A DNA stretch of 64,000 bases from Promethearchaeota archaeon (lineage in GTDB: Archaea > Asgardarchaeota > Lokiarchaeia > Sigyniarchaeales > SOKP01). The DNA lies in NCBI GenBank assembly GCA_019058365.1, contig JAHPZE010000001.1, forward strand, positions 192,001-256,000, read 5' to 3'. The notes below the pieces were generated by a model. It saw nothing but the letters and a program-made list of their open reading frames with translations, was not told where the DNA came from and ran no database searches. The number at the start of each line of letters is the position of its first letter. Within the stretch, counting starts at the first letter, position 1. Positions 30,487 to 37,408 of this stretch are shown in pieces. The position numbers were made by a program, and so were the translations under genes.

Positions 30487-31137
30487 TTATATAAAATATT
30501 TTTGTTGCAATTTTACATATTCTTTATAATCCAAGAACTCGTTTTCGACATATTCAAAAGCAATTTCGAATAACTGCCTTAATAATTCCTCAGGAAACGC
30601 ATTTTGCTCAAAAATTACCTCGTTTACTAATTCTTCAGTTAGGATTTGCGAATTAATTGGTTTATGCCACACCAAAAAACTCATCATTGCCTTTTCTACC
30701 TTAGATTTAATTAGATTTTTTATAAATTTTAAACTAATATCTCGCTTTGGATCTATAAAGTAAGGAAAATTCATATCATCTAAGATTCTGATGTAGTTTA
30801 AGGAATTTGTCATTTTTTCTACACAATAATCTAAGGAACTTACTGGAAGACCAAATTTTTGACAAAATCCTTTCTTACTTTCATGGGCAGGAAACGCAAA
30901 TGGATGCCTTGAGATTATATAATATGCTGCTATAAAAAATTTATATAAATTATGAGGTATTTTTCCGTTGTTTCTTAGATATTTATAGATAATTGAAACT
31001 GTGTCTAACAAATATTCATCTTTGATATCAAATTGTTGTAAAAAATCTTGACCATCTTTTATTAAATCGATGGTAATACGTTCTTTGGTGTTAATTACTT
31101 CATAATCAGGAGTATAAAGTTCTAACATTTCACACAC
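30487..31137 (-). CDS. Cyclin-like/TFIIB-repeat fold protein (stand-alone, no Zn ribbon)
   Basis: FFIAAYYIISR ... SKKGFCQKFGLPVSSLDYCVEKM resembles the TFIIB/cyclin repeat AA.lYia.R...t.keia...gv...ti. Confidence 0.55.
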   Translation of the reverse strand: MCEMLELYTPDYEVINTKERITIDLIKDGQDFLQQFDIKDEYLLDTVSIIYKYLRNNGKIPHNLYKFFIAAYYIISRHPFAFPAHESKKGFCQKFGLPVSSLDYCVEKMTNSLNYIRILDDMNFPYFIDPKRDISLKFIKNLIKSKVEKAMMSFLVWHKPINSQILTEELVNEVIFEQNAFPEELLRQLFEIAFEYVENEFLDYKEYVKLQQKYFI

Positions 31138-31144
31138 ACGACCG

Positions 31145-31186
31145 TATAATATTCATATGATATACTAATGGTATATGAATATTATA
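31145..31186. promoter_or_regulatory. Perfect 14-bp inverted repeat (TATAATATTCATAT-N14-ATATGAATATTATA), candidate operator
   Basis: Read directly; lies in the divergent intergenic region just upstream of the cyclin-fold ORF. Confidence 0.55.
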
Positions 31187-31209
31187 TGATCCTCTTCATT
31201 TATAAATCT

Positions 31210-31313: not shown

Positions 31314-31742
31314 ATGCCATCTGAATCTTCTAAATCAACTGGTCTACCAAGAACTACCGTAAGTTTAGATCCATTTGATAATGAGGTTATTCAAAAGATG
31401 GCTGATGAAATAAATAAGTCTAAGTCCGAAATATTACGTAATATTATTAATGAATGGATTATTTCAAATCCGGATACGTTACAAGCGAAATATGGAATTA
31501 ATTTTAAAGATATTAAACGCGAAATTCAAATAAAGAATGATGAGAGAACAATTGAAGATGATATTAATGAAATCGTTGGATTTTTCAAACGCACAAAAAG
31601 CATAGAAATTGACAGATTAGCAGAGAAGCTTGAAATGAGTCCTAAGACATTAACCGATTTACTTGATAAATACGGAGATCAAATTGAAGAGAAAGGTTTA
31701 AATTTTAGATTTGAAGGCGATTTGATTATAAAAATTGATTAA
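31314..31742 (+). CDS. Ribbon-helix-helix (CopG-like) regulator with a C-terminal winged helix
   Basis: RTTVSLD...IQKMADEINKSKSEILRNII fits RHH; SIEIDRLAEKLEMSPKTL..FRFEGDLI fits wHTH. Confidence 0.75.
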   Translation: MPSESSKSTGLPRTTVSLDPFDNEVIQKMADEINKSKSEILRNIINEWIISNPDTLQAKYGINFKDIKREIQIKNDERTIEDDINEIVGFFKRTKSIEIDRLAEKLEMSPKTLTDLLDKYGDQIEEKGLNFRFEGDLIIKID

Positions 31743-31754
31743 ATTAGGATATAA

Positions 31755-32027
31755 ATGAGTACAGAAAAATTAAAACTAAATAAAATGTATTTTAAAAATT
31801 CTTATAAGAGAATCTCTGATAAAGACTTTAATATTTCTCAGTTAGTAATTCCTTTTTCTAAGATGTTTAGTTCCCAAAAATCAATTGATGTTTATTCAGG
31901 AAAAGAGAAAATTCCATTCAAGGAAAGAGATCCTGAATATAAAATGATTTTAAGGGAAGAGTTTGATAATAACTTAAATTGTGAATTTAAAATTTTTAAA
32001 TCAGTTGTAATATTTCCTTCTTTTTAA
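31755..32027 (+). CDS. Small protein, member 1 of a local 45-aa motif family
   Basis: Gapless motif shared with the ORFs at 33924, 34285 and 34697; starts 12 bp after the RHH gene. Confidence 0.75.
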   Translation: MSTEKLKLNKMYFKNSYKRISDKDFNISQLVIPFSKMFSSQKSIDVYSGKEKIPFKERDPEYKMILREEFDNNLNCEFKIFKSVVIFPSF

Positions 32028-32310
32028 TATCTTTTATAATTTATCTATGACAACTATAGAATACGTTGTTACAACTTAAATTATGTCTGTTTTCTTACTA
32101 TTTTAGGAGGGGGTATCATGGGGCAGGAGAAAAGGAGAAAATTTCTAGGAAAATTAGAAATTAATTTAATATAAAAACATAAAAATCAAATATAATTTCC
32201 ATAGTCTATCCTTTTCTGTATAAGAGTAATGACAAAATTCTTTAAACTATACATAAAATTTTTAAGAAAATCAAATTTCACTTATATTTATAAATTAAAT
32301 CTAATATAAA

Positions 32311-33726
32311 GTGATTTTTATGTCAAAAGAAGAAAATGATGTAAAAACTCCTTCTGAAATTCTCAGAAATGAAGAAGTAGAATATGAAACCACAACTTCA
32401 AGACGAAATGTATTCTTTTGGGCAATGTATGATCTCGCAAACACAATTTACTCTATGGTAATTGTGAGCTTAATAATTAATCGTTATATCCTGGTGATAG
32501 GTCAATTAGAATATGGGATGTCTTATGGCGAAGTTAGCTTTCTTTATGGTTTAGTTAGTTTCATAATGCAAATCGGAGTAGCTATTTGTGTGCCTATTTT
32601 AGGAGCATTTAGCGATACTGTCGGAAAAAGAAAACCTTTCATTATAAGTTTAACAGGTATTATTCTTCTCTTTGCGAGTTTGCTTGGATTTTTTCATGAT
32701 CTAACAACAGTTATAATATTTTACGTAATAGCAAATGTTGCTTATCAGTTTAGTTTGGCTTTTTATGATGCAATGCTTCCATTTATTGCTAAGAGAGATG
32801 ACATAGAAAAAGTAGCTGGATTTGGGGTTGCTTGGGGCTACTTGGGTACTATTCTTGCTCTTGCTATAATGTACCCATTAATATATATATTAAAAGATAC
32901 GGTATCAACTCCGCCTGTATTACCTGGAGATAAGCCAGTACAATATGGATTTGCAGGATACTGGTTTACATTTTTTATACCAATGGTTCTATTTTTAGTC
33001 TGTGCTATTCCATTTCTTTATGTTCGTGAAAAGCAAAAAAAAGGCAAGAGACCGTCAATAGGGAATTTAATCAAAAATACTTTTAGACAAATAAGAAGTA
33101 CATTTAAAGATATTAGAAAACATAAATCAATGTTTATTTTCATTATTGGTTATTTTTTCGTCGCTGACATCGCTAATGTTATAGTTCTCTATATGACACC
33201 AATAGTTACTGATGGTTTAATTATTGCGGGTGGAGCAACCTTATTTGCTATCCTTTTTATAATAATTGCTACTATGTCAGCAGTTGCTTTTACTTATTTT
33301 GTAGGAAAGTTTGGTGCAAAATATGGAGCAAAAAAAACATTTTACCTTGTAGGCGCTTTGTGGGGAATTGCATTAAGTATAGGTATAATATTAGTATTTA
33401 CAACGCAATATATCGATATTGGTGCAAATCTTCCCTTTATCTTTAGTCTAATCATGGGTATCGTAGCGGGTCCAGCACTAGGAGGAACATGGACAGCACA
33501 ACGGATTATGATAATAGAACTCGCCCCCAAAGAAAAATTTGGAGAATTTTTCGGGTTTTCTAAGTTGAGTGGAAAATTTTCTTCAGCACTAGGACCTTTT
33601 ATTTGGGGTACAGTCATGTTAACTTACGATATAATAGGTAAGGCTGCATATGGTTGGGCAATGATATCTGTTGGTATTATAATGGGAATCGGAATATTGA
33701 TTATCTCTTTTATAAAAAAAAATTAA
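32311..33726 (+). CDS. MFS transporter, UMF1/Atg22-like (likely start 32320)
   Basis: WAMYDLANT, PILGAFSD..GKRK, FYDAML, GEFFGF; about 12 TM. Confidence 0.85.
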   Translation: MIFMSKEENDVKTPSEILRNEEVEYETTTSRRNVFFWAMYDLANTIYSMVIVSLIINRYILVIGQLEYGMSYGEVSFLYGLVSFIMQIGVAICVPILGAFSDTVGKRKPFIISLTGIILLFASLLGFFHDLTTVIIFYVIANVAYQFSLAFYDAMLPFIAKRDDIEKVAGFGVAWGYLGTILALAIMYPLIYILKDTVSTPPVLPGDKPVQYGFAGYWFTFFIPMVLFLVCAIPFLYVREKQKKGKRPSIGNLIKNTFRQIRSTFKDIRKHKSMFIFIIGYFFVADIANVIVLYMTPIVTDGLIIAGGATLFAILFIIIATMSAVAFTYFVGKFGAKYGAKKTFYLVGALWGIALSIGIILVFTTQYIDIGANLPFIFSLIMGIVAGPALGGTWTAQRIMIIELAPKEKFGEFFGFSKLSGKFSSALGPFIWGTVMLTYDIIGKAAYGWAMISVGIIMGIGILIISFIKKN

Positions 33727-33923
33727 TCTTTAAAATAATTCTTTTTTTTTTTAACATTAAAGTCAAAACGTTTCTTATTTCTATTTATTCATACGAAAAA
33801 TTAGAACTCCAATACTTTTTATATAAAAATCTTTGGTTTCCTCATGGTTTAACGCTATATAATATATAAAATGAACATACTCAAAAAAATAATCTTAAAA
33901 TATTAACTTTAGATATGTAGACA

Positions 33924-34166
33924 ATGGAGATTAAAGATATATATAAAACGATTCAAGATATTTTTCTACCTATAGAACAACCTCATTTCCCTGATATATC
34001 CCGGTTACTTATTTCATTTGAAGATTTAGGTCAAACTAAAAAAAATAGACTTATTTATTTTGGAGATGAGAAAATATCTTTTAAAGAAAGACTTCCTGAG
34101 TATCAAGAAATTCTAATTAATGAGTCCCTAGCAGATAGAATTATTCTCCTTAAAATTTATATGTAA
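33924..34166 (+). CDS. Small protein, member 2 of the 45-aa motif family
   Basis: DISRL...IYFGDEKISFKERLPEYQEILINE. Confidence 0.75.
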   Translation: MEIKDIYKTIQDIFLPIEQPHFPDISRLLISFEDLGQTKKNRLIYFGDEKISFKERLPEYQEILINESLADRIILLKIYM

Positions 34167-34284
34167 AATTCTCTAACTCAACAAGTATAAGATATAATTT
34201 TAAAGATTTACTTAACTTAGATCAAAAATTCAACCTCTTTTTATATTTAAATAAAGATAATCCATAAAAGAGAGTGAATTTTAA

Positions 34285-34602
34285 TTGATTGGGGAATCAC
34301 GTATAATTGAAAAGAAAGTTGAAAATTTTCTGAAACATATTTTCAAACCAGAAAATTCATTTAATAGGAGAAAACTCCAAAAAAGGAAATTTTTCTTATT
34401 ATCCAAATTTGTGGCTGATTTGTTTAACAGTAAGAATTCACGAATTTGTTTTAATAATATTTCAAATTTAATAATTCTAATCCTAAATATCTATAATGAA
34501 AATTTTCCAGTTGATAGTTATTTTAGCATAGACGATAATTCTCTTAAATCTTTCAATTCAGAATATAAACATATTTTGAAAGAAGAATTTCTTAAGAAAT
34601 AA
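34285..34602 (+). CDS. Small protein, member 3 (divergent) of the 45-aa motif family
   Basis: NISNL...DSYF.....LK....EYKHILKEEF at identical spacing. Confidence 0.7.
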   Translation: MIGESRIIEKKVENFLKHIFKPENSFNRRKLQKRKFFLLSKFVADLFNSKNSRICFNNISNLIILILNIYNENFPVDSYFSIDDNSLKSFNSEYKHILKEEFLKK

Positions 34603-34696
34603 AAATCTATGAATTATCACTAAATTTGTCGGGACGCCCAATATTAATTAATGGATTTTTACTGGAGTATTAAGCAATAATCAATGTGAGATAAAA

Positions 34697-34918
34697 ATGG
34701 GTTTAGAATTAATAGATAGTAAAATTCGTTTTAATGATAATGAATTAAAATTCTCTGAAGAATTTCTAGATATTTCAAATCTGGCAACCCCGTTCTCGAT
34801 CATGTTTAAAAAAGGTTCTACACCAGACATCTATTCTGGTGAAGAAATTATACCCTTTAAAAACAAAATCTCAGAATTTCAACTAATTCTAATAAATGAG
34901 TTTATAATGGACTATTAG
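34697..34918 (+). CDS. Small protein, member 4 of the 45-aa motif family
   Basis: DISNLATPFSIMF...DIYSGEEIIPFKNKISEFQLILINEF. Confidence 0.75.
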   Translation: MGLELIDSKIRFNDNELKFSEEFLDISNLATPFSIMFKKGSTPDIYSGEEIIPFKNKISEFQLILINEFIMDY

Positions 34919-35693: not shown

Positions 35694-35710
35694 TTTTTCT
35701 TTTTTTTTTT
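35694..35710 (+). terminator. Oligo-T tract between convergent genes (archaeal-type terminator candidate)
   Basis: T5-C-T-run shortly after the stop codon of 35051..35683. Confidence 0.4.
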
Positions 35711-36027
35711 TAATTCTTTCCTAAAGCGAAAATCTTATTTGGAAGCACAAAGACATTTTGACACATTGGACATGCATTATATTTTAGCAGCCAAGGTGAA
35801 ACACACGTTGAGTGAAAAATGCTTTCACAATAAGAACATTTGATTGTCTTATGCTTATTAGGATCAACAATTTTGTGGCAAATTGTACATTGAACTTTTT
35901 TTATGAATTTCTCGTTATTCTTTTTTAATTTTTTGCCACAAAAAGAGCAAAAATTTGTCTTATCCTTATCAGATCTAGGTAATCTCTTCCCACAATAAGG
36001 ACAAAAATTATAAATTCTTCCGGGCAA
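35710..36027 (-). CDS. Zinc-ribbon + RING-finger protein (putative E3 ubiquitin ligase)
   Basis: FCPYCG..FCSFCG followed by CTIC...CSYC..FHSTC..PWL....CPMC. Confidence 0.8.
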   Translation of the reverse strand: MPGRIYNFCPYCGKRLPRSDKDKTNFCSFCGKKLKKNNEKFIKKVQCTICHKIVDPNKHKTIKCSYCESIFHSTCVSPWLLKYNACPMCQNVFVLPNKIFALGKN

Positions 36028-36124: not shown

Positions 36125-37408
36125 CTATTCATGAAAATATTTCGTTAAGATCCATATTTCAAATAAAATCCCTATGATTGAAATAATAAATGGGGCTAAA
36201 TAACTGACACTTTCAATGAGAAATGCTCCAATAATACCTGTAGGTAAATATCCAATTCCTTGTAGAAAGCCCAAAATACCATAAGATTCAGCTTTTCTGG
36301 TTTCATCTAAATTAGTTATGATCATTTGCTGGGCACCGATAAATGTAGAAGCACTTAGACCACGCAAAATGGCACCAATACTGAGTAGTGGAATTAAAAA
36401 TAAACCAAAACTGTTTGACCAGAGTATAAAAGTTAAAATTAGTATTGAGAAGTATCCTACACCAAAAAGTTCACTTACAATTAAAGTTCGCTTTTTACCA
36501 ATTTTATCTGCAAGATGTCCTCCAGGAATTTGAAAAACAATACTAGATATACTAAAACTAATTGATAAGAGGGCCAACTGTTCATATGTTAAATTGTATT
36601 GAGATCTTAATCCCGCAAAATAAACCGACAGGGAAATGTTATATACTAATACATCTAGTGTGAAAAAAATAATCACTACCTTATTTTTAGGATTAAGAAA
36701 GATATTTCGCCAAAGTTTTTTTCTTTTAGAAGGATTTCTGGGACAAATCTTAGGATTTTTAGCTTCATTATTCAATGGATTAGAGATACCAAAGATTGTA
36801 ATGAGGTAGTTACCTAAATTAAAAATTATATAAATTATGAAATAAATGCGAACGTCTTTTACAATATCAAGCATTACAAAGTATTGACCACAGACTCCTC
36901 CAAGATTTATGCCAAAAAACATTAAGCCAAACATTAAATCTTTTCTCGATTTCCTACTACTTTCAGAAATAAACATAAAATAACTTATTTCTCCTATAAC
37001 TGAGCTCATATAGTAAAAAACTATTCCCACAACCAAAAATATAAGTTTTTTAGCAAAAATTAGAAGAAACAGCCCTAAAATTGCTAAAGGAACATCAAAT
37101 AACCAAATTTTTTTACGATTAAAGCGATCAGATAATTTTCCTACCCATGGTCTTGGAAAAAACATTATTATCCCTCCGATGGTTATAAGAATTCCTGTAA
37201 TAAAGAGTGATCCTGTAACTTCCAATAAGAATGGTTGATAAACTAAAAAAAATGGACTTGAACTAAAACCATAAATTAATGCCATAAAAAATAAAGCCCA
37301 GAGATTCCTACGCTTTAATTTTTCTTCTTCTTGCATATCCTTAACATCATTATAAACTTCTTTAATCTCCTCTAAATCTTCCTGAAAACGTATTTTCATG
37401 CTATTCAC
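36125..37408 (-). CDS. MFS transporter
   Basis: GKLSDRFNRK and GHLADKIGKK motif A; about 12 TM. Confidence 0.88.
   Translation of the reverse strand: MNSMKIRFQEDLEEIKEVYNDVKDMQEEEKLKRRNLWALFFMALIYGFSSSPFFLVYQPFLLEVTGSLFITGILITIGGIIMFFPRPWVGKLSDRFNRKKIWLFDVPLAILGLFLLIFAKKLIFLVVGIVFYYMSSVIGEISYFMFISESSRKSRKDLMFGLMFFGINLGGVCGQYFVMLDIVKDVRIYFIIYIIFNLGNYLITIFGISNPLNNEAKNPKICPRNPSKRKKLWRNIFLNPKNKVVIIFFTLDVLVYNISLSVYFAGLRSQYNLTYEQLALLSISFSISSIVFQIPGGHLADKIGKKRTLIVSELFGVGYFSILILTFILWSNSFGLFLIPLLSIGAILRGLSASTFIGAQQMIITNLDETRKAESYGILGFLQGIGYLPTGIIGAFLIESVSYLAPFIISIIGILFEIWILTKYFHE

Follow-up and report, generated by a model that had tools for sequence, protein, structure and literature searches.

The stretch of DNA analysed here, called the window, is 64,000 nucleotides (nt) long and comes from the genome of a Promethearchaeota archaeon (GenBank assembly GCA_019058365.1, contig JAHPZE010000001.1, positions 192,001–256,000; GTDB lineage Asgardarchaeota, Lokiarchaeia, Sigyniarchaeales). 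It is AT-rich, with a GC content of 27–35%. Four small open reading frames on its plus strand, termed here genes A to D, share a core of 45 amino acids (aa) and are members of a real, selected and lineage-restricted protein family that is undescribed. Gene A (31755–32027, 90 aa) carries its core at nt 31830–31964 and matches the family profile with an E-value = 2e-26. Gene B (33924–34166, 80 aa; core at nt 33993–34127) gives an E-value = 3e-21 and gene D (34697–34918, 73 aa; core at nt 34769–34903) an E-value = 9e-20. Gene C (34285–34602, 105 aa; core at nt 34456–34590) has a TTG start and is of a divergent type. A preliminary description of the window had reported four such plus strand frames of 73–105 aa, and all of them are present; the positions it gave for the shared motif are correct as gene starts but not as motif starts, the cores beginning further in. 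It had also placed a ribbon-helix-helix (RHH) protein before A, a major facilitator superfamily (MFS) gene before the B-C-D run and a RING gene after D, and these neighbours are found as described.

The gapless 45-residue alignment of the four proteins is reproduced by MAFFT, with I-S-x-L, Y, K, E, I-L and E invariant. BLASTP E-values are 1.6e-14 for A-D, 1.1e-10 for A-B, 3e-9 for B-D and 1.7e-6 for A-C; the B-C and C-D pairs taken alone are not significant. When the ungapped BLOSUM62 score of the original alignment is compared with the best window of 1000 shuffles, z is 13.7 for A-D, 11.7 for A-B, 9.3 for B-D, 7.7 for A-C, 3.2 for C-D and 2.6 for B-C. Thus the similarity among A, B and D stands far above chance in the control that the preliminary description had named as able to refute it. 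Gene C is a divergent member of the family, because a profile free of any C-type sequence still detects it (E-value = 3e-6) as well as its orthologs, down to 2e-10.

The conserved pieces of the core are IPFS, IYxGxExIPF and PEY[KQ]xILxxEF. Among 150 diverse members seven positions are 92–98% conserved, i.e. F34, Y47, G49, E51, F55, E69 and F70 in the numbering of protein P0001. The N-termini are variable, as had been noted, in the sense that they are kept within a type and differ between types. Gene A, the founding type of the family, consists of a variable N-terminus, the core and a conserved hydrophobic tail with an FPSF end, and gene C displays a long helical N-terminal extension ahead of the core. 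The paralogs of the window's genome range in pI from 4.4 to 9.6. This variable charge, combined with seven near-fixed aromatic, glycine and glutamate positions, agrees with one shared contact surface in proteins that otherwise differ by type.

The genome of the window (G000; 4.74 Mb in 54 contigs) contains seven copies of the family. The three outside the window are a 67-aa gene on the same contig (C16:422019–422222), found by profile search of the genome, and a tandem pair of 75 and 74 aa on contig C54. A profile search of 5.8 billion proteins gave 245 clusters at E ≤ 0.01, and those among the matches listed are all 67–105 aa long, carry no Pfam domain, are annotated as hypothetical and come from Asgard metagenome-assembled genomes. 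HMMER over 1.84 billion representative sequences gave 212 matches at E ≤ 1e-3, nearly all of 55–120 aa. P0136 (827 aa) is a false positive with TPR repeats. Of 200 genomes sampled across the phylum, 40 belong to the window's own taxonomic family, and 32 of these contain the genes; none of the 160 sampled from 26 other Asgard families does. Copies number four to eight per genome in the window's genus and one or two in genus g2. All named carriers are Promethearchaeota/Promethearchaeia (Lokiarchaeia-type) metagenome-assembled genomes, with no cultured strain among them, and a search of viral contigs found no relative. The search of Asgard genomes for range, copy number and neighbours that the preliminary description had proposed thus confines the genes to one taxonomic family, where they occupy conserved contexts. 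Open reading frames of 76 aa that follow the RHH gene in genus g3 and genome G186 were also considered. They look alike (FSKQY, or IPYS with a helix ending in ILKREI), but their profile E-values are only 0.13 and 0.006 and they are at most possible diverged members.

The ratio of nonsynonymous to synonymous substitution (dN/dS) in orthologs of A to D, at informative distances, is 0.12–0.47, where the flanking genes give 0.06–0.14. By gene the values are 0.18 for A (against genome G171), 0.47 for B, 0.12–0.26 for C and 0.25–0.38 for D. These are therefore fast-evolving but selected protein genes. Gene B has an ortholog in genome G177 and the B-type relatives P0111 and P0119; gene C is held at a length of 103–107 aa throughout the genus; and D orthologs are found in seven genomes of the genus. 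The suggestion that A to D form an old paralogous set is borne out, in that each type holds its own position across the genus and both the C-D pair and A recur in a second genus.

No characterized family is matched by sequence or by fold, in agreement with the earlier statement that the family is unrecognised. Pfam gives no families at E ≤ 10 for A to D. NCBIfam shows no match for A or D and a chance-level value of 0.11 for one paralog; PADLOC has no match to the family proteins; the best PHROGs match (0.008) is to a family of unknown function; and the best PDB match by sequence (E-value = 0.4, to EGFR and Rns) is at chance level. A literature search found no description of the family. The AlphaFold2 prediction for A, made with an alignment of 150 sequences, has a mean pLDDT of 75 and a pTM of 0.36. 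In the model two helices, one N-terminal and the other C-terminal and beginning at the PEY motif, flank an extended conserved stretch; strands are absent and the structure is not compact. Foldseek finds no match to this model, the best Z-score in the VIA fold comparison is 2.6, a value too low by the rule of that tool to judge the fold either way, and the best ESM Atlas score of 0.76 is uninformative. The family proteins, of approximately 55–120 aa, display no transmembrane segment and are cytosolic. Two further resemblances, to a PIP-box at the C-terminus and to a chromo-like unit of three strands and a helix, had no support from any tool and were dropped. The model and the pattern of conservation and charge suggest that the core is a module which needs a partner or a second copy of itself to fold.

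The most widespread genomic context of the family is the one that contains gene A. In this context, termed I and found in genera g1, g2, g4 and g5, a divergent gene for a 216-aa protein is followed by a gene for an RHH protein with an added winged helix-turn-helix (RHH-wHTH), and then by the family gene. In the window the RHH-wHTH gene (31314–31742, plus strand) encodes 142 aa with matches to PF01402 RHH_1 (E-value = 8.5e-6) and HTH_10 (E-value = 2e-3), and its stop codon lies 12 nt from gene A. The 216-aa gene and the RHH-wHTH gene occur together in 59 loci, and every one of these has a family gene after the RHH-wHTH gene. The gap between regulator gene and A is 1–59 nt in all 55 of these loci where the start of A is normal, and in the remaining four, from two genomes, A is present with an ACG start. 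In genus g2, one of the one or two copies is always the one linked to RHH-wHTH. The RHH-wHTH gene is probably co-transcribed with A.

The two genes are also found fused. P0283 and P0288, from two assemblies, are natural 238-aa RHH-wHTH::A proteins in which CAG is read where the RHH stop codon stands in relatives. A nearly identical locus in genome G049 has TAG at the junction and ACG in place of the ATG of A. P0124 shows a second type of junction, between the end of the wHTH and A. The ACG codons are situated at L049:3680–3710 (G049) and L051:10404–10425 on the minus strand (G132), all other loci having ATG; they lie 7–8 nt past a GGAAGG-type ribosome-binding motif and share the reading frame of the RHH stop codon (TAG or TAA). 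Near-cognate initiation, read-through and decay are all possible for these alleles.

Within the genus the RHH gene exists in two deeply diverged allele classes. When genomes are compared in pairs with 216-aa proteins of 80% identity or more, identity of the RHH protein is bimodal, being either 28–50% or 70–100% with almost nothing between, and identity of A in the same pairs is unimodal at 45–70%. The RHH allele of the window is common only to G177. Between these two genomes the synonymous divergence (dS) is 0.06 for the RHH gene and 0.02 for A, compared with 0.27–0.43 in the flanks, which suggests a recent exchange of both genes as a unit. An inverted repeat (31140–31191) with 19-nt arms 14 nt apart lies in the spacer that separates the 216-aa gene from the RHH gene. 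The exact 12+12 palindrome in this spacer has no second occurrence in the window (0 expected by chance), and the repeat is a candidate operator of the RHH protein. A common operator upstream of the paralogs was searched for and none was found.

A survey of 79 family open reading frames in 50 loci, with approximately 5 kb of flank each, shows further contexts. In context II (genera g1, g2 and g4) a gene for a Hel308-like helicase, a gene of a second small family termed c4 and one to three family genes face a DUF5817/DUF1922 zinc-ribbon gene and a second helicase of superfamily 2. In context III, found at five loci in g4, the family gene lies behind an Lrp/AsnC regulator gene. The B-C-D run between an MFS gene and a Frag1/DUF998 gene is kept through the genus, and a C-type gene followed by a canonical type is also found as a pair in g4 and g6. 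Tandem arrays are represented by B-C-D, by the F-G pair and by a pair of 58 and 74 aa. The MFS gene of the window, which lies between A and B (32311–33726, plus strand), encodes an MFS/ATG22-like transporter (PF11700, 3e-25; PF07690, 2e-23) and is kept in two genera. At the other end, 0.8 kb past D, there is a small RING/PHD-type zinc-finger gene (35710–36027, minus strand; zf-RING_2, E-value = 2e-6), which keeps its place after the Frag1/DUF998 gene in two genera, with products of 102–189 aa. It is a conserved neighbour only.

The core is also found joined to other domains. P0269, a record from Loki's Castle sediment, contains an EVE domain (PF01878, 3e-12) followed by the core. In genera g6 and g7, eleven proteins of 241–338 aa and one frame without an ATG consist of one or two cores followed by a conserved 165-aa alpha/beta domain; a conserved natural protein with two cores in one chain is thus present. 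The search for known relatives of the 165-aa domain found none. A model of a 324-aa fusion gives a best Foldseek E-value of 0.3 and a best VIA Z-score of 4.6, to fragments only. The domain was looked for as a separate gene in the window's genome and was not found (E-value = 0.41).

The c4 family, whose members in context II are 91–105 aa long, is a recurrent associate of the family described here. Four copies are found in the genome of the window (C54:7521–7796, C33:73150–73551, C34:207723–208064 and C7:55713–56204), with a C-terminal motif around KQKxDYCxSQRYFMKLYLK. It occurs in 34 of the 40 genomes of the window's taxonomic family, in the same genera as the A to D family, and in one of the 160 genomes elsewhere. 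Neither Pfam nor PDB gives a match. An hhalign probability of 0.2% rejects c4 as a distant member of the A to D family. The two are found fused, however: a protein of genus g7 joins a full C-type core to c4 (family profile 6e-9, c4 profile 3e-16), and the frame at C33:73150–73551 fuses a C-type N-terminal half, 42% identical to residues 38–77 of gene C (E-value = 1e-6), to c4.

The 216-aa conserved protein, encoded divergently from the RHH gene (30487–31137, minus strand), had been described as a cyclin-fold protein and as a possible shared partner of the four small proteins. Neither idea is supported. The protein has no Pfam (E ≤ 0.01), NCBIfam or PDB match and shows no signal of a TFIIB/cyclin fold. 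A search with PF00382 detects 22 repeats in 11 genes for transcription factor B (TFB) of the window's genome and does not detect the 216-aa gene, and the hhalign probability for the protein and five of these TFBs is 0.4%; at the level of sequence it is thereby rejected as a TFB relative. The 11 TFB (TFIIB-type) paralogs (L095–L100) have two cyclin repeats each. The 216-aa gene is present as a single copy in 102 of 201 Asgard genomes, most of them without the small family. Where a whole taxonomic family is without the small family, the neighbours of the 216-aa gene are different ones and include no RHH gene. Outside the window's taxonomic family it adjoins a gene for a 174–205 aa protein and a DUF5817-type zinc-ribbon gene, and the latter resembles the zinc-ribbon gene that faces the F/G pair on C54. 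The wider range and the other neighbours indicate that the 216-aa gene is the older one and that the RHH-A pair came to lie beside it. The 216-aa protein is thus not likely to be a dedicated partner of A, and the RHH-wHTH regulator appears to be the best-supported partner, ahead of it.

The function of the family can be approached from these associations. It is plausible that A to D are interaction modules, given the non-globular model, the tandem arrays, the protein with two repeats and the fusions. We tentatively favour a reading in which the family consists of partner-dependent docking or pairing modules, the founding copy working with the RHH-wHTH regulator and the paralogs with other partners. 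The core would form no compact domain alone and would take up structure only on binding a partner protein or another core. Gene A would be made together with the RHH-wHTH transcription regulator, and its product would most likely bind this regulator and modulate its DNA binding or its oligomeric state. The later copies, B, C and D and the three elsewhere in the genome, would have carried the module to new contexts, i.e. behind Lrp/AsnC regulators, next to c4 and beside transporters.

Several observations weigh against this reading. The low pTM of the monomer can also stem from a shallow or noisy alignment. The divergence of A does not follow the RHH allele class (Spearman −0.08), an observation that speaks against a close co-evolution between A and the variable regions of the regulator; any binding of A to the regulator would then go through conserved parts. 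The half-site of the palindrome is not found upstream of B, C or D. The contexts are mixed and include helicases, MFS transporters, PhzF and PEPCK, and five of the seven copies in the window's genome (B, C, D, C16:422019–422222 and the inner one of the C54 pair) have no adjoining regulator gene.

The explanation that survives best beside the docking modules was put forward in the preliminary description, namely that the copies are subunits of one homo- or hetero-oligomer, or competing ligands of one partner. They would then have no special tie to a regulator. The tandem arrays and the natural two-core protein agree with this, as do the seven near-invariant core positions present in all types and the presence of four to eight copies in each genome of the genus. 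Since g2 has only one or two copies, however, a hetero-oligomer cannot be a general requirement; the 216-aa protein proposed as the partner is far wider in range and without a cyclin signal, and the copies are spread over at least seven conserved contexts. We regard this explanation as unlikely.

The association with c4 allows a more far-reaching proposal, which we hold to be quite unlikely: the core and the c4 core may be two halves of a lineage-specific pairing system in which the variable N-termini serve as addresses. If so, different regulators (RHH-wHTH and Lrp/AsnC), an EVE nucleic-acid reader, helicase-linked genes and transporters would be wired by small proteins that fold upon binding, forming a new modular adaptor network that arose in one Asgard family.

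It could also be argued that RHH-wHTH and A form a type II toxin-antitoxin-like pair, with the RHH protein as antitoxin, A as toxin and the other copies as orphan toxin relatives. The RHH gene lies directly upstream at a distance of 12 nt, the RHH gene is hypervariable with two allele classes, there is a weak RelB-antitoxin match in NCBIfam (E-value = 0.02, far below the cut-off), and the pair appears to have been exchanged as a unit between G000 and G177. Fused toxin-antitoxin proteins are also known. But no copy matches toxin families in Pfam, NCBIfam or PADLOC, and the model of A has no globular fold and no toxin match in Foldseek or PDB. The pair is fixed at one chromosomal position in four genera and is not patchy or mobile, six of the seven copies have no antitoxin-like neighbour, no co-variation links A to the RHH allele class and no copy was found on viral contigs. 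A toxin-antitoxin function is therefore improbable.

A further explanation takes the proteins to be small cytosolic regulators of MFS transporters or of other membrane proteins. MFS genes (in the window 32311–33726 and 36125–37408; elsewhere L070, L073, L083 and L085) are situated not more than two genes from a family member in three independent conserved contexts, where approximately 4% per context is expected from the 45–50 or so MFS genes of the genome, a proximity that was spotted after the fact. The B-C-D run is flanked by an MFS gene on one side and the gene of a Frag1/DUF998 membrane protein on the other, and A-type proteins end in a conserved hydrophobic tail. However, the enrichment is post hoc and based on three contexts, a transmembrane segment is absent, the two commonest contexts are marked by a regulator in one case and helicases in the other, and no fusion to a transporter is found among the family matches. 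The probability of this explanation is accordingly small. That the frames are chance or decaying frames in AT-rich DNA and the motif a relic, as the low GC content of 27–30%, the TTG start of C and the ACG in place of the ATG of A in two genomes might suggest, is already refuted by amino acids conserved over synonymous saturation at the dN/dS values given above, by hundreds of intact homologs of the same length and by stable positions across genera, and its remaining probability is negligible. The rest of the probability falls to explanations other than those named.

Searches of Asgard genomes centre mostly on eukaryote-like proteins and the lineage-specific dark matter is largely ignored. The present family has clear boundaries and fixed gene partners, and the fusions name RHH-wHTH, c4, EVE and the 165-aa domain as candidate interactors, so that a small number of recombinant proteins would suffice to test it. 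If the docking modules do modulate regulators, this would be a small-protein control of archaeal transcription factors that has recently arisen and diversified. If they do not, the suggested cyclin-fold link is still removed and a second unknown family, c4, is recorded.

Comparison with known systems shows partial likenesses. As in type II toxin-antitoxin operons of the RelB/ParD/CopG type, a small gene in the same direction comes immediately after an RHH gene, evolution of the RHH partner is rapid and fused forms occur. Unlike in these operons, the RHH protein here is 142 aa long with an extra wHTH, the downstream protein has neither a toxin match nor a globular model, the pair keeps one syntenic position over four genera and the paralogs lack an RHH gene. 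Stand-alone RAM-domain proteins, termed demi-FFRP, have approximately 75 aa, are found near Lrp/AsnC regulators and are thought to dock on them. Some members of the family likewise follow an Lrp/AsnC gene. But they show no match to AsnC_trans_reg (RAM, PF01037) at E ≤ 10, the RAM fold is beta-alpha-beta-beta-alpha-beta where the family model is without beta strands, and the main partner gene is RHH-wHTH and not Lrp. Docking on transcription factors is also the mode of action of MicroProteins and of small anti- or co-regulators. The family core differs from MicroProteins in that it is not derived from a domain of the accompanying regulator; like them, the family proteins are short, consist mostly of one conserved interaction-type motif, are co-encoded or fused with a DNA-binding protein and have expanded into paralogs.

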